From the IMG/VR virus record IMGVR_UViG_3300021387_001477: a stretch of DNA of 64,000 bases; one strand, 5' to 3'. The stretch comes from a virus. Lineage: Duplodnaviria; Heunggongvirae; Uroviricota; Caudoviricetes. A program made the translations under genes and the position numbers. The notes beneath the pieces were generated by a model. It saw only the letters and a list, made by a program, of their open reading frames with translations, was not told the DNA's origin and did no database searches. Shown here in pieces: positions 10,386 to 56,550 of this stretch; within the stretch, counting starts at the first letter, position 1, and every line of letters begins with the position of its first letter.

Positions 10386-11894
10386 ATGGTTTGTAATGAA
10401 CTAAAAGACAAATTACCTGAAGGATGGAGAGAAAAATTTGTACATAGAGACTGTGACCAAGCTAACTATGAATTCGCTATGTTTGAGATTGATGGGAAGA
10501 ATAAGATACTAGTCCGAAACCCAGATACCGACGACATAATGGAATACTACTATGATGATTTTGATGAATGGATTGAGATAGATAAAAAAGTTATGAGATC
10601 TCTAATAAATAAAGACACAGAGTCCAAAGTTTATATTAGTCCTGATGGAAAGTATATAAAACATATTGGAAGAAAGAAAAGAGAACTATCTTCAAAATTA
10701 GTAGATAGGTGCCCGTACCCAATAATATCCATATGTAGTTGTCAAGTAAAAACCCACAGACTTATAGCTTTTATATTTATTCCAAACCCATATCCAGAAA
10801 AATATAATATAGTTAATCATAAAGATCTAAGCAGAACAAACTTTAGCAAAGAGAACTTAGAATGGTGTGATGCTAAATGGAATGCAAAAAGAGAGAATCA
10901 AAAGAAATATATTCCTGGAACAGTTTATGAAAGACTATCAGATGGGAGAAGATTTTCTTCTGCTGATTTGGCCGAAGAGTATAAGAATAAGCAATCAAGC
11001 TCGGCAGTTTTGGGAGCAATTAGCCGCGGAAAAACTTATCATGGGAGTACATGGAGAGTAATAGACCTTTCATTAGAAGATTATTTATCACGACACCCGC
11101 TGACAGATAGTTGGATCCAACACCCTACACTAAAAGATGTTTATGTAAATAGCTGTGGAGTACTTAGGATAAAAGATAAAATAGTTGTTGGAAATAAACA
11201 CGAGTGTTTATATTATTCAATAAGTATTGAAGGGAAACTATATAAGACCCACAGAATAATAATGGAAGCCATTCTTAATAGAGAGCTCCTAAACACAGAG
11301 GTAGTTGATCATATTATTCCTGTTTCTAAAGATGACATAAACAATGAAATATCTAATCTTAGAGTAGGAACGCAAAAAGATAACCTAAATAATGAACATA
11401 CACGTATTAAGTGGATTAAGAAGGGATCGCTTAAAAAATTTTCATTATTTGGTGACTTTGTAGAAGAATATAAAACTATAGATGATGCGCTTAAGGCGAA
11501 TAGTGAGATAAAAAGTAAAGTCTTGCTTATTAGGGCAACTGAGCTAGGCGCTGGAGCACTTATTTCTGCTGGAAACTTTCTCTGGTGTTTTGAAGGAGAG
11601 GAGGATAGAGTAAAAGATAGACTAGATTTTATATACTACAAAACGCCAGTAAACTCCTTAACAATAAAACCAGAATCCGCCTCAATAAATCTCAAAGATC
11701 TATCCAAAGAAATCCCAATTAATAAACTCAACAAAGTACTGAACACAGGATTTCCCTTAAATGGATACGTTTACCAGCGGGGAAAACCTAATGATATCCT
11801 CATTGATAAATCTAATACAGCATTGGAGAAGAAACGAGATAATATATCATGGAGAGAGTTTACAGGAAGAAATAAAAATAGAGAAGACAACTAA
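10386..11894 (+). CDS. free-standing HNH homing-type endonuclease (paralog of 1818..2981)
   Basis: Shared N-terminal region (YYYDDFDEW vs YFYDDINQEW) and HNH blocks (THRLIAFIF...N; THRIIMEAIL...DHIIP...N). Confidence 0.65.
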   Translation: MVCNELKDKLPEGWREKFVHRDCDQANYEFAMFEIDGKNKILVRNPDTDDIMEYYYDDFDEWIEIDKKVMRSLINKDTESKVYISPDGKYIKHIGRKKRELSSKLVDRCPYPIISICSCQVKTHRLIAFIFIPNPYPEKYNIVNHKDLSRTNFSKENLEWCDAKWNAKRENQKKYIPGTVYERLSDGRRFSSADLAEEYKNKQSSSAVLGAISRGKTYHGSTWRVIDLSLEDYLSRHPLTDSWIQHPTLKDVYVNSCGVLRIKDKIVVGNKHECLYYSISIEGKLYKTHRIIMEAILNRELLNTEVVDHIIPVSKDDINNEISNLRVGTQKDNLNNEHTRIKWIKKGSLKKFSLFGDFVEEYKTIDDALKANSEIKSKVLLIRATELGAGALISAGNFLWCFEGEEDRVKDRLDFIYYKTPVNSLTIKPESASINLKDLSKEIPINKLNKVLNTGFPLNGYVYQRGKPNDILIDKSNTALEKKRDNISWREFTGRNKNREDN

Positions 11895-11912: not shown

Positions 11913-12323
11913 TTATCTAATTCTTCTAAACCTAACTACGTACTTGCTTTCATCTCTCCTAACTTGGGCCCCTTTTTCTCGAATGAATCTAAGAATTGGA
12001 TGGGTAATCCAGTTAGGAACTAAATCCTCTCGTTTAGTATCACACTCTACTTTAAGATCTTTGCAATTCATAATCTTATCATACATTCTTGTCATTGCAT
12101 ATGCACTCCCCTCAAATTCGATTGTATTTTCATCAATCATTTTCATAGGCATAGCACATTCATATGCATCCCCAGCTAATAGATCAAATAATAACTTAAT
12201 CTTTGGCCCATAACTCGCACAATATGACGTGTAATACTGATCATAGAACTTTCTAATCTCAAATATCTTAGAAGTTGGTACATAGTTTGTATTTGAATCC
12301 GTTATTACTTTATGTTTCCACAA
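11913..12323 (-). CDS. DNA polymerase A, terminal exon (motif C region and C-terminus)
   Basis: CASYGPKIKLLFDLLAGDAYECAMPMKMIDE ~ T7 gp5 LQSAGALICKLW...AYMAWVHDE; ECDTKREDLVPNWITHP ~ T7 DTEGKMGPNWAICH; preceded by intron S-element and G. Confidence 0.65.
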   Translation of the reverse strand: MWKHKVITDSNTNYVPTSKIFEIRKFYDQYYTSYCASYGPKIKLLFDLLAGDAYECAMPMKMIDENTIEFEGSAYAMTRMYDKIMNCKDLKVECDTKREDLVPNWITHPILRFIREKGAQVRRDESKYVVRFRRIR

Positions 12324-12640
12324 AGACTAGACTATATCATTATCCATATTTCAGGATAGATCGCGCTTCGAGAGCAGGACTTTCACCTGATCTCTACTTC
12401 CTTTCAGAATAGTCGTTACACCTTCCATTTCTGGCTTGGCTCGGGATTAGCATGCATTTCTGTTTAGCTTTCCCCGATAGCAAGATTTCTCTCACACCCT
12501 ATATTTCTAGGTTCACGATCTTTTGCACTCTAGAATTACCCCTAGAGGCCACAATTTTACTTATGGACTACAATAATTGGTTGGAGTGGTTGTTTCCAGC
12601 CCTCTTGTATTGATTCACGTATATTATTAAAGAATCCTGA
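12324..12640 (-). mobile_element. group I intron in polA (canonical core); 5' boundary approximate
   Basis: CGGGGAAAGCTAAACAGAAATGCATGCTAATCCCGAGCCAAGCC ... GTGTAACGACTATTCTGAAAGG ... AATGATATAGTCTAGTC ... G| then exon. Confidence 0.55.
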
Positions 12641-12669
12641 GGCCATGATTGAGGCAGTGCCACCTTGTC

Positions 12670-12700
12670 GTTATTACTTTATGTTTCCACAAAGACTAGA
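12670..12700 (-). repeat. duplicate of the 31-nt intron-3'-tail/exon-start sequence CTAGTCTTTGTGGAAACATAAAGTAATAACG (other copy 12298-12328)
   Basis: Exact-looking repeat directly after a second intron S-element but not followed by coding sequence. Confidence 0.5.
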
Positions 12701-12925
12701 TCATATCATTATCCACATTCATGGATAGGCTGCGCTTCGGAATACAGAATTTCACTGTAAACCTACTCCTTTCGGATGATCGTTACACTTTCTCTATCTC
12801 TAGAGCTTAGCACGGGATTGGCATATTATTACTAACTTAGCTTTCCCCGTTAGCAAGATCTCTCACACCTAAGATTTCTTAGTTCACAGCCTGTTTCATA
12901 TAGGATTACTCCTATAAGCTACAAT
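12700..12925 (-). mobile_element. group I intron in polA (canonical core); boundaries approximate
   Basis: CGGGGAAAGCTAAGTTAGTAATAATATGCCAATCCCGTGCTAAGC ... GTGTAACGATCATCCGAAAGG ... AATGATATGATCTAGTC. Confidence 0.5.
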
Positions 12926-13209
12926 TTTATTTATAGGAAGATTCACGCCTAATCTTTCACACCTCGCCTTTAGATTATTCTTCTCTCTGGAATTTGCTTT
13001 TAGCCACAGATCATATTCTTTAATTTTTAATTTATCGCCCATTATTGAATTAATATATCCATCATGGCTAAATGGATACTGTTGTTGAGAGGCCACATAC
13101 TCTCTCAATTTAGGGAAACTTGTATAAAGTCCCTGTATAATATCATCAGCTTCCTCTTCTGAGCAAAATAGTCTTTCAGCCAATGATTTCTTTCCTAGAC
13201 CATAAAGAA
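12896..13209 (-). CDS. DNA polymerase A internal exon (palm: end of motif B to QG region); true 3' splice end near 12926
   Basis: SLAERLFCSEEEADDIIQGLYTSFPKLREYV ~ Klenow [31 protein letters not shown]; ...ARCERLGVNLPIN ~ AAERAAINAPMQG; naive join to micro-exon is out of frame by one nt (see findings). Confidence 0.6.
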
Positions 13210-13464
13210 CCGTTTTGTTATCCTAGAAGTTTTTTTATCTCCTAGCTCTAGTAATTCATTTCTTACTAGTCCAGCATATATTTTCAACTCATATTTTCGA
13301 GTTGGTGGGCTCTCTTGGAAGGATTATATTTATTCACCTTCTATGCGTTACACTAGATTAAAGCCTCTCGCAATCTTTAACCTTAGCACGGGGTTTGGAT
13401 TCTCACCATTCACCGTTTTAGTCCACTTATCATCTATAATATCACTACTATAGACGGCATTTCT
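13210..13464 (-). mobile_element. family-B small group I intron (copy 2), 255 nt
   Basis: GTCTATAGTAGTGATATTATAGATGATAA...ACGGTGAATGGTGAG...GTAACGCATAGAAGGTGAATAAATATAATCCTTCC...GGATAACAAAACG; >80% identical to copies at 13485, 14242, 26113, 29352, 55218. Confidence 0.65.
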
Positions 13465-13484
13465 ACCTAAGAAGACAGTTTTGA
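13465..13484 (-). CDS. polA micro-exon (~20 nt, TCAAAACTGTCTTCTTAGGT) encoding core of polymerase motif B (KTVFLG ~ T7 AKTFIYG)
   Basis: Sits between two tandem family-B introns; with upstream exon gives RKRSF|KTVFLG; exact splice points uncertain. Confidence 0.45.
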
Positions 13485-13739
13485 CGTCTGTTATCCTATA
13501 GGCTTTTTATCCTATAGCTCTATTAGTTCATTTCCTAATAGTCCAGCATATATTTTCATCATTTCTTTTATGATGTCGAGCTCTCGTGGAAGGATTATAT
13601 TCTATTTATAGTTTCACCTTCTATGCGTTACGCTGCTATAGACTCTTTATTTCTATAGTTAGCACGGTATTAGGAATCTCACCCTTCACCGTTTTAGCTC
13701 GATTATCATCTATAGTATCACTACTATAGACGGCCCAAA
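13485..13739 (-). mobile_element. family-B small group I intron (copy 1), 255 nt
   Basis: Same conserved 5' GTCTATAGT..TATAG module, core and 3' GGATAACAGACG. Confidence 0.65.
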
Positions 13740-13740
13740 A

Positions 13741-13830
13741 TGACCTTTTTCTCCACATCTTCTTGTCTTTCTTGTCTAGTTTATCAAATTTATCGCCTAG
13801 ATAGAGCTTGGCGGTATATATATAACAATG
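13741..13830 (-). CDS. polA exon fragment (...TAKLYLGDKFDKLDKKDKKMWRKRS); 5' boundary unknown
   Basis: Open frame upstream of intron B1 ending in R-x-x-x-(F)K that completes motif B with the micro-exon. Confidence 0.35.
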
Positions 13831-13849
13831 TGTTCAGAGAGTGTCGTTA

Positions 13850-14143
13850 CTTCTCTCTGGTTCTCTTATGAACTCCTGTATATTTCTATACAGATCAGAC
13901 TATATCTTCACCTCAATACCGAGGGCTTACCGTTTCCACTACACGAACTTTGTAGTGTACTCTCTTTCGAGATAGTCGTTGGGGTTTTGATACAGAGCTA
14001 GTTAGTCATACTAGCCTTAATTTTATAAATATTTATCAAAACCTGCTGATTGGCCTTATTCTTTGATTTCTTACGGAAGTGACTAAATCTTCTCGTACCA
14101 AAGACTTAACGGGCGTTTCCAGCATTTAGTAAGTTTATTTTTC
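13850..14143 (-). mobile_element. group I intron (family C-like) in polA; boundaries approximate
   Basis: CAACGACTATCTCGAAAGAGAGTACAC ... GAAGATATAGTCTGATCTGTATAGAAATATACAGGAGTTCATAAGAGAACC tail (tail duplicated at 14530-14570). Confidence 0.45.
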
Positions 14144-14144
14144 T

Positions 14145-14241
14145 TGGGATCACTCCCAAGCGATACTTAAATCTAATATCTTCGCCTTTATTAAACTTAT
14201 CAATCAAGTCGGGATCTCCGCTTGCGAAACCTGCAGCTTTT
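14145..14241 (-). CDS. polA exon fragment between motifs A and B (KAAGFASGDPDLIDKFNKGEDIRFKYRLGV...)
   Basis: Follows G of intron B3; resembles Klenow LLTAFAEGKDIH region; ends at 20-nt hairpin repeat CTTGGGAGTGATCCCAAG. Confidence 0.4.
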
Positions 14242-14498
14242 CAGTTATGTTATCCTAAGAGCTTTTTATCTCTTAGTTCTATAGATTCTTATTTATATTC
14301 TCTATAGCTCGGCGTACATTTTTAACTATCGCTAGTTATCGGACACTCTTGGAGATACTATATTTATTCAATCTCTACGCTCTACATTACTAGAGTGCCT
14401 TTCGAAATCACTCTAGTTAACTCGGTATTTAGATTCACACTATTTACCGATTTTGCCCGATTATACTCTATAGTGTTTCCACTATAGACGGCATTTCT
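14242..14498 (-). mobile_element. family-B small group I intron (copy 3)
   Basis: GTCTATAGTGGAAACACTATAGAGTATAATCG...CGGTAAATAGTGTGAATC...GTAGAGCGTAGAGATTGAATAAATATAGTATCTCC...GGATAACATAACTG. Confidence 0.6.
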
Positions 14499-14509
14499 AC
14501 CTCTGCACT

Positions 14510-14741
<232 letters not shown>

Positions 14742-17423
14742 TTAGTTTTTCTTGGGATCACTCCCAAGTGACACCAATAATTTATTTTCAATGTCAAAAT
14801 AAGTTTCAATAAAGTCTTCATCTACTATATTCCCATTCTCGTCAATATGATATGGCGTTCGAACACAATCTTTAAAATCTGCATGACTAACCAAGACATG
14901 GAACGCACTAGACCACCTCTTTGAACTCTTTGTGTTGACCTCATAATGACAAAAGCATTTATGTACTGCTCCTGGCTCATTAGGGTCAGCTTCACGAATA
15001 GGAATATGTTTTTCGTCCTCAATTACCCACTTTCCCTCTTTCAGCATTCCATCAATATAGGTCGATAGAACCTTTGAATATTTTTTGAAGAGCAGATAAT
15101 TGATGACCATTTTTCTCATAAAATAGAATCTGTTATCAAAGTCAGATTCATTGAAGATCTTTCCATAATCTTCATATTGATCAGAAACATACTTAAAGAA
15201 CTGTTCCTGAGCGATATATCCATTAAAGTTACTCCACACCTCTTTTACCTGATCACATCCTAAGTCATTATAGAATTGATCAAACAGGACATATACTTTT
15301 TCTGGATAACTGGTTTGCCCTACTGGAGTTCCTTGATAAAGTTTTGTATAGTTCTCTCCAAAATGAGCAAATCCATCTTCAACTGTTTTTATACCGAGTT
15401 GTTCATAATATTTTTCTGCGCCTGGAAGTTGCTGCGCACTTTCAAACATTGCAGCGAGATATGCAGACTCGGTAGGATACAGTTGAGCAAATTCCAAACA
15501 GATCTCATCATTTTCAATGGGGGACTTACACTTAAAGAAGTTATCCGATACATAATCTGAATAACTAATTAAATCCCATTTTTGTCCAAATGCATAGATC
15601 TCTTGAGGAATGTTTTGTATGTCATTAAGTTGATTCTTTGAGACTTTCATTAACTCATTGAACGCTCTTTCATAATATAGATACTTCTCAAGCTCTATGT
15701 GTTTGTCATTTATCTTTATTTTATCTAGTCCGATTATAGGAATTAGTTTATCTCCCAAGACCTGTTGGATCTTCTTCTTTCCGCCAATTCCTGAATCAAT
15801 CTTAGACTTCAATACTTTCTGACCTGTTTTCTTATAGAGTTTTATCATTCCTACCTCTTCCATTGCTTCTCTTAGGACTTTCATAAAATTGGTAGCAAAG
15901 TCTGGACCATACTTCATTAATAATTGGCCCTCGTTTATACCAAGTTCATAAGCATCCATAGTATCAACATTAGAAGTCAGAAGATACTTAGCTATTTCAG
16001 CCGGATTTCCATTAAAGAAGGTATTATCATGCAGCAGTTTCTTGGCAATATCAGAATAATTATCTATATTTGCCATCTTTTTCTTGTGCTTATCCATCTT
16101 TATTTTACACCTAGCTTCACTACAAAACGTAATGCTCCACGCAATCATCTCTTTCGACTTCTTTTCATACTCCAATCTAAATGGCTCGTCAATATATAGG
16201 CCACAATTATGAAGTCTGGCGCCCAATCTTGCATTATCCATAAAGGTTCTAATACAATCTTCAGAGAATTTATCTTTCTCTACCAGATGTATCATAAGAG
16301 TATAGAAAGCGTCAAGATTACAATAATACCCTAATATTTCTGATGGAACACACATAAATGAACTCTTGTCCCAGTATTCAAGTATTAAAGCTTCAAATTC
16401 ATTTATATAACTTGGGTATCTTGCGCATATCTCAGCCCATTCCGGAGTTGTTTTAAAATCAGAGGGAGTAATTTTTAGAACTTTCTTCTTATCTTTCTTA
16501 AGTTTCCCTACTTCTTCATAAAACATGCTTTCAACAAGATCTGAGATTCTGTCAAACTCGGTATCCCAGACAGTAGCCTGAAGTATCATTTGGGCTGACC
16601 ACTTTAAGGAATATTTCTTTAAGTGATTTCCCTCAATGACATTATAAACAGACGCATCTATAAGATTATATAGGTCTACTCCAAACATTCTATGAGATAC
16701 GGCCTGTTCATATTGCATATTATAAGTTACAAGATGACTCTGCCTATGATTCAAAAAATCTCCAAATCTTTTACATATCATTCCGTATTGTTCAGGACTA
16801 CATGTATGTCTAAGATCTGTAAAACTTATAAATCCTCCGAAGTTTTTTGTACACAGTGATGCCCCAGATATATCAAACCATACATCCAAAGCCATACCAG
16901 ATGCCTCGAAGTCAAAGCCTAGGTCCTCAGTCTCTGGAAGATTACAAAGCCAGTCTAAAAATTTCATTGCTCCAGTAAAATCATGAATAACTTTACTTTG
17001 GAACCAGGAAAAATCAACGGGCTGTGTAAATCCTGGAGACATAAAATCTCTAATTATGTCTGGAGAAGGAGGATCTAGAACTACCTTAACAAAAGCTCCG
17101 CCCTCTATACTTAACCTTCGAAGTTTGGACACATCGAAGTAATTCTCTGACCTAACCCCAAAGTGATAGAACTGGTTTAGATATCGATAAGGTTCTGCCC
17201 CCACCAACATAACAGCATCACTTGGGCCTAATGTCAGAAACTCTCTTTTTGCATCATCGGACATAGATTCAATATTCTCAACCGTAAAGATCTGAGATGA
17301 ATCCAGCCCTATTCCATAATAATCCACCACGTAATTTGGTGTTTCTTTAGCTGAAATTAATACAAATCGTTTGTTCATAAATCTAAATATTAATATACCT
17401 TTGAGCCGATATCTTACATACAC
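14742..17423 (-). CDS. DNA polymerase A exon 1 (N-terminal region incl. 3'-5' exonuclease-like domain, no polymerase motifs A/B/C)
   Basis: 893-aa ORF; GFDFEASGMALDVWFD exo-like block; last codons overlap the 20-nt hairpin repeat so true 5' splice site may lie slightly upstream of the stop. Confidence 0.65.
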   Translation of the reverse strand: MYVRYRLKGILIFRFMNKRFVLISAKETPNYVVDYYGIGLDSSQIFTVENIESMSDDAKREFLTLGPSDAVMLVGAEPYRYLNQFYHFGVRSENYFDVSKLRRLSIEGGAFVKVVLDPPSPDIIRDFMSPGFTQPVDFSWFQSKVIHDFTGAMKFLDWLCNLPETEDLGFDFEASGMALDVWFDISGASLCTKNFGGFISFTDLRHTCSPEQYGMICKRFGDFLNHRQSHLVTYNMQYEQAVSHRMFGVDLYNLIDASVYNVIEGNHLKKYSLKWSAQMILQATVWDTEFDRISDLVESMFYEEVGKLKKDKKKVLKITPSDFKTTPEWAEICARYPSYINEFEALILEYWDKSSFMCVPSEILGYYCNLDAFYTLMIHLVEKDKFSEDCIRTFMDNARLGARLHNCGLYIDEPFRLEYEKKSKEMIAWSITFCSEARCKIKMDKHKKKMANIDNYSDIAKKLLHDNTFFNGNPAEIAKYLLTSNVDTMDAYELGINEGQLLMKYGPDFATNFMKVLREAMEEVGMIKLYKKTGQKVLKSKIDSGIGGKKKIQQVLGDKLIPIIGLDKIKINDKHIELEKYLYYERAFNELMKVSKNQLNDIQNIPQEIYAFGQKWDLISYSDYVSDNFFKCKSPIENDEICLEFAQLYPTESAYLAAMFESAQQLPGAEKYYEQLGIKTVEDGFAHFGENYTKLYQGTPVGQTSYPEKVYVLFDQFYNDLGCDQVKEVWSNFNGYIAQEQFFKYVSDQYEDYGKIFNESDFDNRFYFMRKMVINYLLFKKYSKVLSTYIDGMLKEGKWVIEDEKHIPIREADPNEPGAVHKCFCHYEVNTKSSKRWSSAFHVLVSHADFKDCVRTPYHIDENGNIVDEDFIETYFDIENKLLVSLGSDPKKN

Positions 17424-21927: not shown

Positions 21928-22225
21928 GGTCCATTAATTCAGTGGTTAGAATGGCTGACTCATGATTATTACGATTGTGTGCTTAGGAAGGAAACGCCTA
22001 AGTAGATTCCCCCAAATTCGGTGAAAGCTAAGGAGAAATCTATGCTAATACCGAGCCAAGCAGGTATATATAATAAATACTGGGCGTGTGTAGAGACTAG
22101 ATGGAGGAGGCCTAAGTAGAAATATATGGTCGTGGTATAGTCCAGTTCAGCAAACATGAAATTATGGCACGAAAGTGTAGTTGAAACGAATCAGTAAGTC
22201 GCAGGTTCAAATCCTGCATGGACCA
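21928..22225 (+). tRNA. tRNA-Met/Ile (CAU) interrupted by a 225-nt group I intron (21964..22188) between positions 36 and 37
   Basis: Exon1 GGTCCAT..GCTGA-CUCAU (ends in U); exon2 AA-TCAGT-AAGTC-GCAGGTTCAAATCCTGC-ATGGACC-A; intron ends in G. Confidence 0.7.
21964..22188 (+). mobile_element. group I intron (ORF-less) in tRNA-Met
   Basis: TTCGGTGAAAGCTAAGG...GCTAATACCGAGCCAAG...TGTAGAGACTAGATGGAGG (R element)...GGTATAGTCC (S element). Confidence 0.75.
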
Positions 22226-22296
22226 CAAATAAAAAATCTAATAGTCCGATAGCTAGAGATATCGTCTCTCGGACTATTTTCGAAACAATAACAGAC

Positions 22297-22596
22297 GGCC
22301 CGATAGTTCAGAGGATAGAACGACAGCCTTGAAGCGCTAAAAATGATATTAGCATTAGGAGTGCACTGAGGGAAACTTCAGATGTAGAACTCTTCAAATT
22401 CGGGGAAAGCGTAATAGCCAATCCCGAGCCAAGCCTAGAAAATCGTTCTAGGAAGGTGTAGAGACTAGACGGAGAGGGCCTAAAAGATTATTTGATAATC
22501 TCATGGTCAAGGGATAGTCCGAGATGAGAATTATTATTAATTATTCTCATTGAGCTAAGCTGTAAGTCCTGCGTTCGAATCGCAGTCGGGCCGCCA
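22297..22596 (+). tRNA. tRNA-Arg (UCU, inferred from splice rules) interrupted by a 224-nt group I intron (22331..22554); CCA encoded
   Basis: GGCCCGA-TA-GTTC-AGAGGATA-GAAC-G-ACAGC-CUU|intron|CUAA-GCTGT-AAGTC-CTGCG-TTCGAAT-CGCAG-TCGGGCC-G-CCA; anticodon assignment depends on exact junction. Confidence 0.6.
22331..22554 (+). mobile_element. group I intron (ORF-less) in tRNA-Arg
   Basis: GAGTGCACTGAGGGAAACTTCAGATGTAGAAC...TTCGGGGAAAGCG...CCCGAGCCAAGCC...GGTGTAGAGACTAGACGGAGAGGGCCTAA...GGGATAGTCCGAG. Confidence 0.75.
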
Positions 22597-26057: not shown

Positions 26058-26390
26058 CGGGATGTAGCGCAGTTGGTAGCGCATGTGGTTTGGGACCACA
26101 GGGTCGCAGGTTTATTTTTACAATGGACGTCTATAGTGGAAACATTATAGAGAATAATTGGGCAAAAACGGTGAAGGCTGAGATTGCTAACGCCGTGCTA
26201 ACTAGATATATTGCGAAAGGATATCTAGCAGCGTAACGCATAGGAAGTGAATAAATATAATCTTCCCACGAGTGTCCAACAGCCACAGTAGATGTGGTTG
26301 AAAACGTATGCTGGACTAATACAAAATGAAGTATTAGAACATAGAGATAAAAAGCTTTATGGTTAACATTCGCGAGTCCTGTCATCCCGA
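26058..26390 (+). tRNA. tRNA-Pro (UGG) interrupted in the T-loop by a 260-nt family-B group I intron (26113..26372)
   Basis: Exon1 CGGGATG-TA-GCGC-AGTTGGTA-GCGC-A-TGTGG-UUUGGGA-CCACA-GGGTC-GCAGG-TT (ends U); exon2 CGAGT-CCTGT-CATCCCG-A restores T-loop TTCGAGT and acceptor; intron ends ...AACATTCG. Confidence 0.7.
26113..26372 (+). mobile_element. family-B small group I intron in tRNA-Pro T-loop
   Basis: GACGTCTATAGTGGAAACATTATAGAG...ACGGTGAAGGCTGAGATTGCTAACGCCGTGCTAACTAG...GCGTAACGCATAGGAAGTGAATAAATATAATCTTCC. Confidence 0.65.
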
Positions 26391-26411
26391 CTAAAAGAAA
26401 ATAGGTAGAAA

Positions 26412-28852: not shown

Positions 28853-28900
28853 AAAATTGTAGACTCGGCTTGGTGGTGGAATGGTAGACACGAGGGACTT

Positions 28901-29319
28901 TAACGTTACTTAAAGGGAAATTATTTCCAACTTATTAAGTATAATTTGAGTGCACTGAAGGAAACTTTAGATGTAGAACCTCCCTAATTCGGTGAAAGCT
29001 AAGCGCAACGCTGCAAAACGCTCCCTGAAATACGGTTAGCGCCTATAGGATAAAGATGCGTATAAATTGCGTATGCTAATACCGAGCCAATGTTTAAAGA
29101 CAGTGTGTAGAGACGAGATACGGGAGGGACCTAAGTTGAAATTTATAAACGTAGTGGGTGGGAATTACCACGTTAAATCCAAAACCTGAGATAAAAGGCA
29201 TTTATAATCTTGCAAGATTTCAATATGGTTAAGATACAGTCCAGACCACAAACAGATTAAGAGCAGAACCAACCTGTATATCAAAGATTTAATCTGGTAG
29301 CGAAAGCTATAGTGGTAAG
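28901..29319 (+). mobile_element. group I intron at the classical tRNA-Leu(UAA) U34/A35 site
   Basis: GAGTGCACTGAAGGAAACTTTAGATGTAGAAC...TTCGGTGAAAGCTAAGC...ACCGAGCCAATG...GTGTAGAGACGAGATACGGGAGGGACCTAA...GATACAGTCC. Confidence 0.65.
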
Positions 29320-29351
29320 AAAATCCCTTGGGCAGAAGTGCCCGTGTGGGT

Positions 29352-29605
29352 TCTCAATCGAGCCGTCTATAGTGGAAACATTATAGATTATAACTGAGCA
29401 AAATCGGTGAAAGCTGAGATGCCAATACCGAGGTAACTATGGGAATATCGAAAGGTCCTATAGCACCGTAGAGCATAGAAGGTGAATAAATATAATCCTT
29501 CCAAGAGTGTTCAGCATCATGGAAGAAGTGATGAAGATATATGCCGAACTATTAGGAAATGAACTAATAGAGCACAGAGATAAAAAACTCTGTGGATAAC
29601 AAATT
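29352..29605 (+). mobile_element. family-B small group I intron in tRNA-Leu T-loop
   Basis: Near-identical to 26113..26372 and 55218..55455 copies; ends GGATAACAAATTG. Confidence 0.6.
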
Positions 29606-29697
29606 GTCGAATCCCATCCGAGCTACAATATAGCCCTGAAATAGTAAAAACGCTATTTTCAGGGTTTCTTTTCCTTATTAATGAAAGGATATCAATT

Positions 29698-53835: not shown

Positions 53836-54807
53836 ATGCTGTATCTATTAAGATCTTTTGGAAGGAAGAAATCTATATTAAAGGTCGGATATGCCAGTGA
53901 TATAGATAGGAGAGTGAATACTTATTTTACGTATGCTCCCTATACAGAACTTATTAATACAAAAGAAGGGGATTTTACGGATGAGACTATGCTACATATT
54001 TATCTTCATTATCTTGGTTTTGGAAAATTGGGTAATGAATGGTATGAAGATTGTCAAGAGGTTATAGACGTATTTAATTCAGACCTTAATGATGTTTTAA
54101 AGGAGGTCTGGGATAAAAGGGATTCTATATTTTCCTTGATAGATTTAGACCAAGTATGTAAAGCAGAGGTATATAGAAGAGCACTGGAAAGATATAAACC
54201 GGCGGATTTTATTCCGGTAGATAGATTTTCATACGATGCAGATTCAGACAAGATACTTCGAATAAATAAGACAGGAGAAGCTATTGATGAAGCCTATCAG
54301 TTGAGATTGGATCAAGAAACTCTATTAAATAACCAAAACTTAAATCAAGAGGTTTCGAGCCTATATTCAGAATATTCGATAGACAGTAATTTTGAGAGAA
54401 GGATGAGATTATTGTGTGATTTTATAGACAATAATTCTGAATTCTATAAAAGTAATATCGATACCATTTCTGTATTAATGTATAGGCAGGTTCAATTTGC
54501 TGAATCATTAAGTACTTCTGAAATTAGAGCAGTTTCTTATCGAGAGGTTAATCTTAAGAAGATAATAGAAGTGCAGAAGACACAGGATAACAGAAAATCA
54601 ATCATCGTAGGTAAATTTTCTGTTGGGTCTAGGTATTCTCTTTCGTCAATTAAAGATACCCTAAGGGAGTCATATGCGCAACTCGGAATACTTAAGTCGC
54701 CGAAGGCTAGTGATATCTTAGAATTTCTTGAAGTAAAGAAAGTAAAAATCATTGACCCTAGTACAAAGGAGAAGATAAATGGTTATGAAATTTTAAAAGT
54801 GAAGTAA
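53836..54807 (+). CDS. putative GIY-YIG/T5orf172-like N-terminal domain protein sharing C-terminal module with upstream helicase
   Basis: KSILKVGYASDIDRRVNTYF...; C-terminus SNFERRMRLLCDFID...SEIRAVSYREVNLK...GYEILKVK. Confidence 0.4.
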   Translation: MLYLLRSFGRKKSILKVGYASDIDRRVNTYFTYAPYTELINTKEGDFTDETMLHIYLHYLGFGKLGNEWYEDCQEVIDVFNSDLNDVLKEVWDKRDSIFSLIDLDQVCKAEVYRRALERYKPADFIPVDRFSYDADSDKILRINKTGEAIDEAYQLRLDQETLLNNQNLNQEVSSLYSEYSIDSNFERRMRLLCDFIDNNSEFYKSNIDTISVLMYRQVQFAESLSTSEIRAVSYREVNLKKIIEVQKTQDNRKSIIVGKFSVGSRYSLSSIKDTLRESYAQLGILKSPKASDILEFLEVKKVKIIDPSTKEKINGYEILKVK

Positions 54808-55217
54808 TGTTAAATATTTACGTAGATAAGAATATAGGGAAAATAGTTCTAAAGACAGATGATTCTTCTGCTAGGTACCTTCTTGAAAAAACAGAGAAGG
54901 AAACTAAATTTATACCAAGGCTTAGGAAGTATGGAACTATAACCAGAACAACTAAGATTTATGATAATACAAGAGTGAGGCCGGATAAGGATGGTGTATG
55001 GACGTTTTATCTTGGTCTTGGTTGGGCTGGATATCTTGCAAGTGTGTTTTTTAAGTTTATGACAAAGGCAGAATATGACCAACTTCTTCTTGATGCCGTC
55101 TATTCTGATAACGTAAGAACAGTACCATTTCCAAATTTGCGAGATTACCAAAATTCCGATGCTCTCCACCTTTTAAAATATAAAATTGGTCTATTCAGTT
55201 GTTATACAAGTTACGGT
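54807..55217 (+). CDS. SF2 DNA helicase exon 1 (Q-motif LRDYQ and first part of Walker A ...GLFSCYTSYG)
   Basis: Exon ends TACGGT (U); tracked ORF terminates 2 codons later at TGA inside intron. Confidence 0.65.
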
Positions 55218-55455
55218 AAATGATTTGCCGCATTATATAATGATACTTCGGGTAAAAACGGTGAAGGGTGAGATTCCTAATACCGTGCTAACTACTGTAA
55301 TTACGAAAGGTATAGTAGTAGTGTAGAGCATAGAGGTTGAATAAATATAATACCTCCAAGAGTATCCGACATAGAGATATGAAAATATATGCCGAACTAA
55401 TACGAAATGAAGTATTAGAACTATAGGATAAAAAGCTTATAGGATAACAAAATTG
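55218..55455 (+). mobile_element. family-B small group I intron splitting the helicase Walker A motif; begins AAATGA (in-frame stop)
   Basis: ACGGTGAAGGGTGAGATTCCTAATACCGTGCTAACTAC...GTGTAGAGCATAGAGGTTGAATAAATATAATACCTCC...GGATAACAAAATTG; join gives TSYG|KTELIA = GxxxxGKT. Confidence 0.65.
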
Positions 55456-56550
55456 AAAACTGAATTAATAGCAACATTAGCCAATTATTTTTATGGTATT
55501 GGTAAGAAGGTTTTAATTGTTACACCAGGCCAAAAACCGAGACAAGAGGTGGAGAAAAGAATAAAAGAAAGATTTGGTATAGACGTCAAAAATTCTGGTG
55601 GTAGGATTATGTCTATTATAACATCTGGTCTTTTAAAGAGAAATGATATAAAAGACCCTGATCAATTAAAGAAGTTTGAAAATGAGCTTGCTTCCGTTGA
55701 CTGTCTCTTGGTTGATGAGGTTGAGTATACTATAAATGATTCGGGGATGTTTATATATGATAGGGTTATTCATGCAGATCATTTCTATGGATTTTCAGGA
55801 ACTGCCGATAAGAAAAAAGGCGAAATGATATCCTTTGTTAATGGTCTGGATGATTCAATTATACGAAATAAAGACCTTATAAAATACTTCGGCCCGTCTC
55901 TCGTATATAGAATGCCACTTGATCTTAAGGTCGATTATATCCGGGTTAAGACAAGTACATTGAATAGAGTTAAATTTTTACCGGAAGATTTTGCAGATAA
56001 TACTAATGTTTATAATAATGTGATATGCAGAATTTTCACGGATCCAGATGTATGTCGACTTGTTGTGAAGATAGCAAAGAGATATCCAAAAATCTATCTT
56101 CCAATGTATAACTTAACCTCCGTGATTAGTGAGTGGCTTAGCTATTTCTCTGCCGCTAAATTAAGGGTACTTCTCATATGTGGTGAGGGATTTCTTTATT
56201 ATGACGAGAATGGAGTGAAGACTAAACTCAAAGATCTAGCCGAAGCCTGTGAATATGTTAAAAATAATAGGGTAGATGTAATTCCTTCAACGTCAGCCGG
56301 TTTTCGTGCCCTTGATCTCCCTGGACTTGAAACTACACTCCTAACTATTGGAAAGATGGCAGGTGTTGTACTTCAGAGTGTGGGAAGAACGGCAAGAGGA
56401 AGCCATATGAACTTGATTACTCTTGAGCCCTTCCCTAAAAAGAAAATTCCAGTATATACAAGTGGAATGAAGGAAAGGGATGAGATGATTTTGCAATATT
56501 ATAAGTATTGTGATATAGTAGAAAGTGAAATTTTTGATAAGAACTTATGA
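55456..56550 (+). CDS. SF2 DNA helicase exon 2 (motifs Ia, II DEVE, III, VI QSVGRTARG)
   Basis: LLVDEVEY, FSGTA, VLQSVGRTARG; no in-window ATG start, begins right after intron G. Confidence 0.65.
   Translation, partial: KTELIATLANYFYGIGKKVLIVTPGQKPRQEVEKRIKERFGIDVKNSGGRIMSIITSGLLKRNDIKDPDQLKKFENELASVDCLLVDEVEYTINDSGMFIYDRVIHADHFYGFSGTADKKKGEMISFVNGLDDSIIRNKDLIKYFGPSLVYRMPLDLKVDYIRVKTSTLNRVKFLPEDFADNTNVYNNVICRIFTDPDVCRLVVKIAKRYPKIYLPMYNLTSVISEWLSYFSAAKLRVLLICGEGFLYYDENGVKTKLKDLAEACEYVKNNRVDVIPSTSAGFRALDLPGLETTLLTIGKMAGVVLQSVGRTARGSHMNLITLEPFPKKKIPVYTSGMKERDEMILQYYKYCDIVESEIFDKNL

Follow-up and report, generated by a model that had tools for sequence, protein, structure and literature searches.

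Seven group I introns in one phage DNA polymerase gene, with 15- and 20-nucleotide exons in motifs A and B

Introduction

How can a DNA polymerase gene encode an intact motif B when that motif is cut into pieces, one of them only 20 nucleotides (nt) long? The question is raised by a 64,000-nt stretch of DNA (the window) from the IMG/VR virus record IMGVR_UViG_3300021387_001477, in which direct reading places a 20-nt segment, TCAAAACTGTCTTCTTAGGT, at 13465-13484 on the minus strand between two homologous elements of about 255 nt. The original prediction took these elements for near-identical self-splicing introns around a micro-exon that carries the motif-B lysine, and held that downstream of it the reading frame is broken by one nucleotide. 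Here we report that the host gene is a family-A DNA polymerase on the minus strand of the jumbo-phage-sized genome (at least 317 kb) of an uncultured phage, and that it contains seven group I introns lacking open reading frames (ORFs), which fall into three sequence families (A1 and A2; B0, B1 and B2; C1 and C2). B1 and B2 are the two elements around the 20-nt segment and lie in the 3' third of the gene. We consider it very probable that the whole reading is right, namely a seven-intron polymerase gene in which B1 and B2 are diverged group I introns that flank a true 20-nt exon and arrived by sequential invasion. The claimed frameshift would have been the surprising part, and it does not exist.

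Results

On the minus strand the window reads GTTCTTTATGGTCTAGG at 13194-13210, with two G's, and the single-G string behind the supposed frame discontinuity, GTTCTTTATGTCTAGG, has no occurrence anywhere in the 64 kb. The same GG is found in four related contigs (L167-L170) and in L236, an ENA contig of 317 kb with 100% identity to the window along 8.3 kb. The positions first given for the two introns were approximately right but their exact ends were not: B1 ends at 13742 rather than 13739 (3 nt off, where the earlier boundary would insert a Ser), and B2 starts at 13211 rather than 13210 (1 nt off), the G at 13210 having been counted also as the first exon base. Taken literally, the earlier coordinates give a broken frame, whereas correction puts the whole gene in frame, and the true sequence holds no frame break that splicing would not remove. 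The apparent frameshift arose from a G dropped in transcription together with the off-by-one intron boundary, and since there is no frame break in the DNA, its proposed explanations (an indel, a shifted junction or a real frameshift) are all moot.

Splice sites were placed by the P1 pairings in Rfam alignments, by the rule that the intron follows a U and ends in a G, and by homology between copies. In the resulting model every one of the seven introns follows U and ends in G, and the eight exons, the first of them in an 893-amino-acid (aa) ORF at 14742-17423 (-), join into one open frame of 1195 codons with no internal stop. The 5' splice site of B1 was set after AGGT (13743) because the protein comparison needs RKRFK, where the motif-B Arg precedes the Lys by four residues. 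The 1195-aa product matches the Pfam family PF00476 (DNA_pol_A) with E = 2e-28 (99.6 bits) over aa 876-1089, a span that includes six of the seven junctions, and no gap is needed to align it with Taq polymerase over motifs A and B (wrkrfktvflgvlyglgkk versus mrraaktinfgvlygmsah), with the Lys of the 20-nt segment opposite Taq K663. The three family-A motifs, A (DxSxxE), B (RxxxKxxxFGxxYG) and C (HD), are present as DISSAE, RKRFKTVFLGVLYG and VVHDS and align with those of Taq and the relatives. One of 36 metagenome homologues, P0001, is uninterrupted across all seven intron sites, and the spliced model does not differ from the consensus of the family (...YFDISSAEVKAAGFASGDP...GEDIYIYTAKLYLG...KKMWRKRFKTVFLGVLYGLGKKSLAERL...VNLPIQGGT...IIVVHDSNTNY), which likewise reads WRKRFKTVFLGVLYGLG at motif B. 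At motif A, relatives read YFDISSAEVKAAG uninterrupted (P0001 in protein, L230 in DNA). It had been expected that the 20-nt segment would encode (F)KTVFLG in the frame of the upstream exon, would carry the motif-B lysine and would continue into VLYGLGKKSLAERLF; the Taq alignment and the family consensus agree with this on every count, and exon 6, with its GG, encodes VLYGLGKKSLAERLF. A search of GenBank phages with the spliced protein returned nothing above 26% identity, a megablast search returned short intron matches only, and a viral_contigs scan with exon 1 found no relatives. Other kinds of interruption were considered and rejected: an intein or translated insertion (B1 read in frame meets a stop), translational bypass, and a twintron (the 20 nt are required for the conserved FKTVFLG).

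Comparison at the DNA level drew on a broader set of 80 metagenome loci, in which introns are polymorphic in presence or absence at at least nine sites of the polymerase gene and every intron site of this gene has relatives in which it is empty. Relatives at 60-73% identity lack an intron at either motif-B site, and L134 (87% identity) has no intron anywhere in the region. The four contigs L167-L170, which come from different assemblies and have 92-93% protein identity, read ATGTGGAGAAAAAGGT.TCAAAACTATCTTCTTAGGT ^ 252-nt intron ^ GTTCTTTATGGTCTAGGAAAG (here and below a caret marks a splice site), that is, an exact empty B1 site, AAAAAGGT.TCAAAACT, then an intron, then GTTCTTTATGGTCTAGG. The empty site is identical to the predicted ligation product, and the intron is an orthologue of B2, at the same position and 90.5% identical. 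The predicted spliced sequence therefore equals that of uninterrupted relatives in protein and in DNA, the natural empty B1 site included, and it is these empty sites that establish the predicted junctions exactly. Because L167-L170 carry B2 next to an empty B1 site, the alleles show that the gain of B2 preceded that of B1. In the B1-less allele the AGG Arg codon, and with it the GGU, is already in place, and more distant relatives have AGA, CGA or CGT at this codon, without GGT there. The other sites vary as well, with A1 occupied in L001, L128, L131 and L133 and empty in L130 and L230; B0 represented by a B-type intron in L130, L194, L180 and L230; A2 occupied in L196, C1 in L194, and both empty in most relatives. 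Around the 15-nt micro-exon there are thus natural alleles with A1 only (L131, L133) or B0 only (L130, L230). The peptide pattern of the metagenome scan spans the B1 site; B1-occupied alleles could not be recovered with it and no B1 orthologue was obtained, and a viral_contigs scan for the tandem pattern of intron end, micro-exon and intron start gave no match.

Whether the elements are ribozymes was judged from their folds. Rfam calls group I introns above the gathering score of RF00028 (50 bits) at 14564-14800, 13876-14185, 12677-12942 and 12308-12572; A1, A2, C1 and C2 score 53.6-78.9 bits, the A pair following GAYAU and the C pair CYAU. The B elements were recognized by profile (E = 1.5e-58 for B1 and 4e-58 for B2, well outside what chance would give), which upholds the claim of two related elements of about 255 nt around the 20-nt segment, although at 73-78% identity B1 and B2 are not near-identical. 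Their P7 is invariant as GCAUA/UAUGC, whereas the Rfam consensus is GACUA/UAGUC, so that two covarying pairs differ. A hand-derived structure of B2, with P1, P2, P3, P4, P5, P6, P7, P7.1, P8, P9, P9.1 and a P3/P7 pseudoknot, was projected onto an alignment of 28 de-replicated copies. Over these 28 members 88.7% of cells are paired, as against 32-42% when partners are slid by 1-3 columns; double-sided changes occupy 448 cells (64-107 in the slid controls), and the covariation score is 0.625 (at most 0.116 in the controls), values that none of 500 shuffles matched. P3 is 98.8% paired with compensatory change in five of its six pairs and P7 is 100% paired, while P4/5, P6, P8, P9 and P9.1 are 88-95% paired with many compensatory pairs; P1 and P2, at the end that depends on the exons, align poorly, as is to be expected. 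The hairpin directly 3' of P7 (P7.1) is 100% paired, with four of five pairs compensatory; Michel and Westhof reportedly defined subgroup IA, in 1990, by an extra P7.1(/P7.2) between P7 and P3'. Between B2 and its orthologue 10 of 63 pairs have changed and all 10 are still paired, 8 through double compensatory substitution, which is direct evidence of selection on the fold. A U.G wobble and a terminal G can be placed in both introns (B1, ...AGGU^CAUUUUGGGCC...GACG^; B2, ...AGGU^AGAAAUGCC...AACG^). The P3-P9 core with its pseudoknot is conserved and supported by covariation, and at this comparative level B1 and B2 are shown to have a group I ribozyme fold; the covariation, the U before and G at the end of the intron and the guide pairing described below also support their proposed identity as self-splicing introns. 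Neither encodes an endonuclease of its own, since at 254-258 nt they are too short and hold only chance ORFs of 40-47 aa. The core signature GTAACGCATAGNNGGTGAA occurs in at least 120 IMG/VR contigs and 21 contigs of bacterial genomes, and the B type is a widespread phage ribozyme family.

When the 5' region of each intron was compared with the ligated exons for contiguous pairing, the B1 guide UUUUGGGCC paired 9/9 with GGU^UCAAAA and the B2 guide AGAAAUGCC 8/9 with GGU^GUUCUU, in each case giving a P10; P10 of B0 is weak. The guide loop of B1 is AUUUUG and that of B0 and B2 is GAAA, a difference that falls exactly where B1 must match its own 3' exon. We expect that B1 and B2 would each splice by the standard two-step mechanism initiated by guanosine, the 5' exon being recognized through a P1 of 3 bp (GGU in the exon pairing with GCC in the guide, the splice site marked by a U.G wobble) and the 3' exon through P10. 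The 20-nt exon would then be held at its 5' end by P10 of B1 (UCAAAA with UUUUGG) and at its 3' end by P1 of B2 (GGU with GCC), and either order of splicing should give ...AGG T^TC AAA ACT GTC TTC TTA GGT^GTT CTT TAT GGT..., or WRKRFKTVFLGVLYGLG, an intact motif B, with no frameshift, indel or recoding involved. The predicted ligated junctions are AGAAAAAGGT^TCAAAACTGTCTTCTTAGGT^GTTCTTTATGGTC at motif B and TTTGACAT^TAGTAGTGCAGAGGT^AAAAGCTGC at motif A, where P10 of A1 and P1 of B0 read the 15-nt exon.

B0 is 65-70% identical to B1 or B2, and the six B-type copies of the window (three more besides B0, B1 and B2) are about 67-78% alike. B1 is as close to the copy in a tRNA-Leu gene (78.2%) as to B2, is 76.6% identical to the copy in a helicase-like gene, and is equally similar to a copy in an unrelated viral contig. 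Five of the six window copies follow GGU and the sixth follows GUU with a compensating GAC guide. Among 55 distinct copies with a GCC guide, 31 have GGT 4-14 nt upstream, whereas a control window gives 5 of 55 (Fisher p = 1.4e-7), and in the lineage of this polymerase B-type introns are found at several different ...GGT^ sites. The pattern fits sites determined by guide pairing, whether because the introns enter by reverse splicing or because they persist only at places that allow a P1, and does not fit an endonuclease with a long target. B2 entered first, and B1 later entered the GGU supplied by the AGG Arg codon 20 nt upstream; the mechanism of spread is what we infer.

The exons and introns of the gene are collected in Table 1 with the other features discussed below.

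Table 1. Features of the polymerase gene and other features of the window (bits are RF00028 scores unless another model is named; a caret marks a splice site)
Feature	Position	Strand	Description
Exon 1	14791..17423	(-)	N-terminal ~878 aa; likely ATG 17378; ends ...TTTGACAT; P1 UGACAU/GUGUCA in Rfam alignment
Intron A1	14514..14790	(-)	277 nt, group I; 78.9 bits; guide UUAUUGGUGUCA 12/12 with UGACAU^UAGUAG
Micro-exon TAGTAGTGCAGAGGT	14499..14513	(-)	15 nt, between A1 and B0; encodes (I)SSAE(V), motif A
Intron B0	14242..14498	(-)	257 nt, B-type group I; nhmmer E = 1.1e-48; in covariation alignment
Exon 3	14176..14241	(-)	66 nt; encodes KAAGFASGDPDLIDKFNKGED(I)
Intron A2	13826..14175	(-)	350 nt, group I; 59.1 bits; guide 10/11 with GAUAU^UUAUAU
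Exon 4	13743..13825	(-)	83 nt; ends ...TGG AGA AAA AGG T; carries motif-B Arg
Intron B1 (upstream element)	13485..13742	(-)	258 nt, B-type; 28.7 bits; nhmmer E = 1.5e-58
Micro-exon TCAAAACTGTCTTCTTAGGT	13465..13484	(-)	20 nt; (F)KTVFLG, motif-B Lys and Phe; contiguous in DNA of relatives
Intron B2 (downstream element)	13211..13464	(-)	254 nt, B-type; 20.7 bits; nhmmer E = 4e-58
Exon 6	12933..13210	(-)	278 nt; begins GTTCTTTATGGTCTAGG; encodes VLYGLGKKSLAERLF...NLP(I)
Intron C1	12669..12932	(-)	264 nt, group I; 53.6 bits
Exon 7	12563..12668	(-)	106 nt; encodes QGGTASIMASGF...IIVVH
Intron C2	12300..12562	(-)	263 nt, group I; 66.5 bits; guide AAUUGUGG 8/8 with CCAU^GAUU
Exon 8 (last)	11913..12299	(-)	Encodes DSNTNYVP... 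to stop codon
Free-standing HNH endonuclease ORF	10386..11894	(+)	502 aa; PF13392 HNH_3, E = 9e-7
tRNA with CAU anticodon (Met type)	21928-22226	(+)	Group I intron ~21964-22188 in anticodon loop; 48.3 bits
tRNA-Arg(UCU), most likely	22297-22596	(+)	Group I intron ~22331-22554 in anticodon loop; 49.7 bits
tRNA with CTA anticodon	25594-25666	(+)	'Pyl' by ARAGORN; 56.8 bits against Rfam tRNA model
tRNA-Pro(UGG)	26058-26391	(+)	B-type intron 26113-26372, 260 nt, in T-psi-C loop; GCAGGTT^...^CGAGTCCTGT
tRNA-Leu(UAA)	28867-29626	(+)	Intron 1, 28901-29319, 419 nt, group I; intron 2, 29352-29606, 255 nt, B-type group I, in T-loop; GTGGGT^...^TCGAATCCC
B-type intron in helicase-like gene	55218-55455	(+)	238 nt, in P-loop; ORFs 54807-55223 and 55453-56550

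Other features of the window

The window holds about 13 group I introns in total, several of them in tRNA genes. In the tRNA-Pro gene a perfect 74-nt tRNA is called by ARAGORN only after the intron has been removed in silico. The tRNA-Leu gene has a first intron at the classical U34^A35 site of the anticodon loop and a second in the T-loop (guide UCGAGCC, 7/7 with GGU^UCGA), with an internal exon of 32 nt; excision of a single intron did not reveal this gene, and a perfect 86-nt tRNA is called only when both are removed. Among 109 B-type copies in the collected loci no other lies in a tRNA that ARAGORN can call. In the surveys that we searched, the group I introns reported from bacterial tRNA genes all lie in anticodon loops, and a T-loop position is given for tmRNA alone (PMC13011429, PMC11915505); the T-loop tRNA introns, and the tRNA gene with two introns, are more unusual than the polymerase finding. 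The introns of the CAU and UCU tRNAs score just below the Rfam threshold, and their boundaries were picked among several options compatible with ARAGORN. The tRNA with a CTA anticodon is a potential amber suppressor, as in TAG-recoding phages; the spliced polymerase gene has no in-frame stop. In the helicase-like gene the insertion follows GGT, and the spliced product reads ...SCYTSYG^KTELIATL....

The HNH endonuclease ORF is convergent with the polymerase gene and immediately downstream of it, a layout also seen in L236 and L237, and its product might serve the ORF-less introns in trans. The genome is present in the samples ERZ12302816 (ENA) and SRR873601 (SRA). L235 and L237, independent short-read Logan contigs from SRR873601 that are 100% identical to the window, stop exactly at repeated intron segments that flank the array (14567, 12329), and paralogous introns evidently fragment short-read assemblies of this gene. 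Relatives' contigs of this polymerase measure 326-393 kb; L230 (CASEGV010000001.1, 371 kb), labelled as a metagenome-assembled genome of an 'uncultured Mycoplasmatota bacterium', carries the same phage polymerase and is probably a jumbo-phage genome binned as a bacterium. In the uncultured crAss-like phage cr128_1 (L003, MT774392.1 76982-77014) 33 nt match the 3' hairpin of B0 exactly. They lie in the gap directly upstream of an ORF that is called 'major capsid protein' and is truncated, and point to a B-type intron that the annotation of this capsid gene has missed.

Discussion

Taken together, the frame, the protein comparison, the natural empty sites and the covariation point to a polymerase gene that is interrupted seven times and probably restored by splicing, with B1 and B2 as separately acquired introns around a 20-nt exon. 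Several observations weigh against this. B1 and B2 reach only 28.7 bits (E = 1.2e-4) and 20.7 bits (E = 0.03) against RF00028, below its gathering score, and in the local scan over 3.2 kb B0 had no match to it; the low scores of B1 and B2 follow from the departure of P7 from the model consensus. P1 is only 3-4 bp and uses the same GGU triplet for B0, B1 and B2, so that less correct mRNA might be made if introns pair wrongly or an exon is skipped. Apart from the window, a single assembly contig (L236) has the full array, and the window may itself stem from that contig; two Logan contigs break at the intron repeats. That splicing actually occurs, finally, we infer from the sequence.

How the same observations might be read otherwise has to be considered with these points in mind. 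A genuine one-nucleotide problem after the micro-exon, be it a sequencing or assembly indel in the GG run, a shifted junction or a programmed frameshift, draws on nothing in the sequence and goes back solely to the transcribed GTTCTTTATGTCTAGG; as that string is absent, the GG is shared with L167-L170 and L236, and the spliced gene is in frame and matches its relatives residue for residue, we give this practically no credence. The gene might instead be a decaying pseudogene whose elements are dead intron relics and whose exon structure is a fossil, and seven interruptions in one essential gene are indeed extreme, in addition to which the B-type elements score below the Rfam threshold and their splicing is a prediction. 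Yet eight exons remain in frame without a stop and with their catalytic residues conserved, each of the three B copies keeps its ribozyme helices intact, the substitutions between B2 and its orthologue are compensatory in every changed pair, and the guide-exon pairings are kept, including the site-specific P10 of B1, all of which makes decay extremely improbable. B1 and B2 could also be thought to descend from one intron by a recent tandem duplication in situ, being of one family and orientation, 20 nt apart and behind a common 5'-exon tetranucleotide AGGU; against this, B1 and B2 are far less alike than B2 and its orthologue in the relatives, B1 is equally close to the copies in the tRNA gene, the helicase-like gene and the unrelated viral contig, and relatives carry B2 alone beside an intact empty B1 site. 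Such a duplication is very unlikely, and sequential invasion is preferred.

As an addition to the seven-intron reading rather than an alternative to it, the tandem might be regulatory, in that the shared GGU would lead some transcripts to skip the 20-nt exon and shift frame (AAAAAGGT^GTTCTTTATGG), so that active polymerase would depend on splicing fidelity or the level of GTP. The P1 triplet is identical in the three B introns, and skipping of exons between adjacent group I introns is known in SIOphi and Twort according to PMC11878797, but nothing in the present data points to a skipped product and the strong, site-specific 6-bp P10 of B1 favors correct ligation. Close relatives do well without B1, which argues for a parasitic rather than an adaptive arrangement, and we regard regulation as unlikely. 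At present we can offer only tentatively, as a possibility with rather less than even support, that ORF-less B-type ribozymes choose new sites by their own 3-nt guide (GCC-GGU), the simplest route being reverse splicing into RNA and then fixation in DNA. If this were so, the polymerase gene would be a natural record of repeated guide-directed transposition, with many ...GGT^ sites occupied or empty among close relatives, and B1 would have entered only the allele whose AGG Arg codon made GGU. The universal GGUUCGA of the tRNA T-loop would be a further target, which would explain the T-loop introns of tRNA-Pro and tRNA-Leu, and the long-debated route by which group I introns spread would become directly testable.

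For annotation, the locus means that an eight-piece polymerase gene split by sub-threshold ribozymes will be mis-called as fragments or as a pseudogene. For biology, at least nine polymorphic sites together with the GGU-GCC guide rule make a clean natural system for the spread of group I introns without endonucleases, and one that allows a test of interference between introns with a common guide in one transcript.

Group I introns in phage family-A polymerase genes are classical, being known from SPO1, Bastille and other Bastillevirinae, and T7-like phages. In Bastillevirinae there are up to three introns per polymerase gene, a small exon lies between two of them and skipping of exons is reported (PMC11878797), and the present gene resembles theirs in having group I introns in conserved catalytic regions of a phage DNA polymerase. 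It differs in that their introns average about 800 nt and mostly carry endonuclease genes, whereas here there are seven, ORF-less and of 254-350 nt, with two exons of only 15 and 20 nt, and the phage, an uncultured one, has a genome of 317 kb or more. Twort orf142, as cited in PMC11878797, is likewise a single phage gene with several related group I introns and possible cross-talk, although it is described there as having three introns and as skipping exons, and here there are seven. Both crAss-like Delta/Zeta phages and Jug jumbo gut phages have core genes, polymerases among them, that are dense in introns; up to 14 introns are reported per crAss-like genome and on average 18.5 per Jug genome, those of Jug mostly of about 206 nt and without ORFs (PMC7886860, PMC12880540). 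Compared by described features, these gut phages share the many group I introns in core genes; the contigs of the relatives are near the Jug size range, and the B-type match in cr128_1, a crAss-like phage, lies in its capsid-gene gap. Micro-exons and T-loop tRNA introns are absent from the descriptions in PMC7886860 and PMC12880540. Jug phages are reported without alternative coding, whereas the window encodes a tRNA with a CUA anticodon. In the literature that we searched, only part of the whole, we found no description of such short exons or so many introns in one phage gene.

The cox1 genes of fungal and other mitochondria also have mini-exons, very short and set between group I introns, which are a recognized annotation problem there. 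As a rule the introns of mitochondrial cox1 contain LAGLIDADG or GIY-YIG ORFs and need maturases; the context there is organellar, here it is a phage with minimal, ORF-less ribozymes. Seven introns in one gene, with exons of 15 and 20 nt in motifs A and B, are an extreme example of a known phenomenon and no new kind of element.

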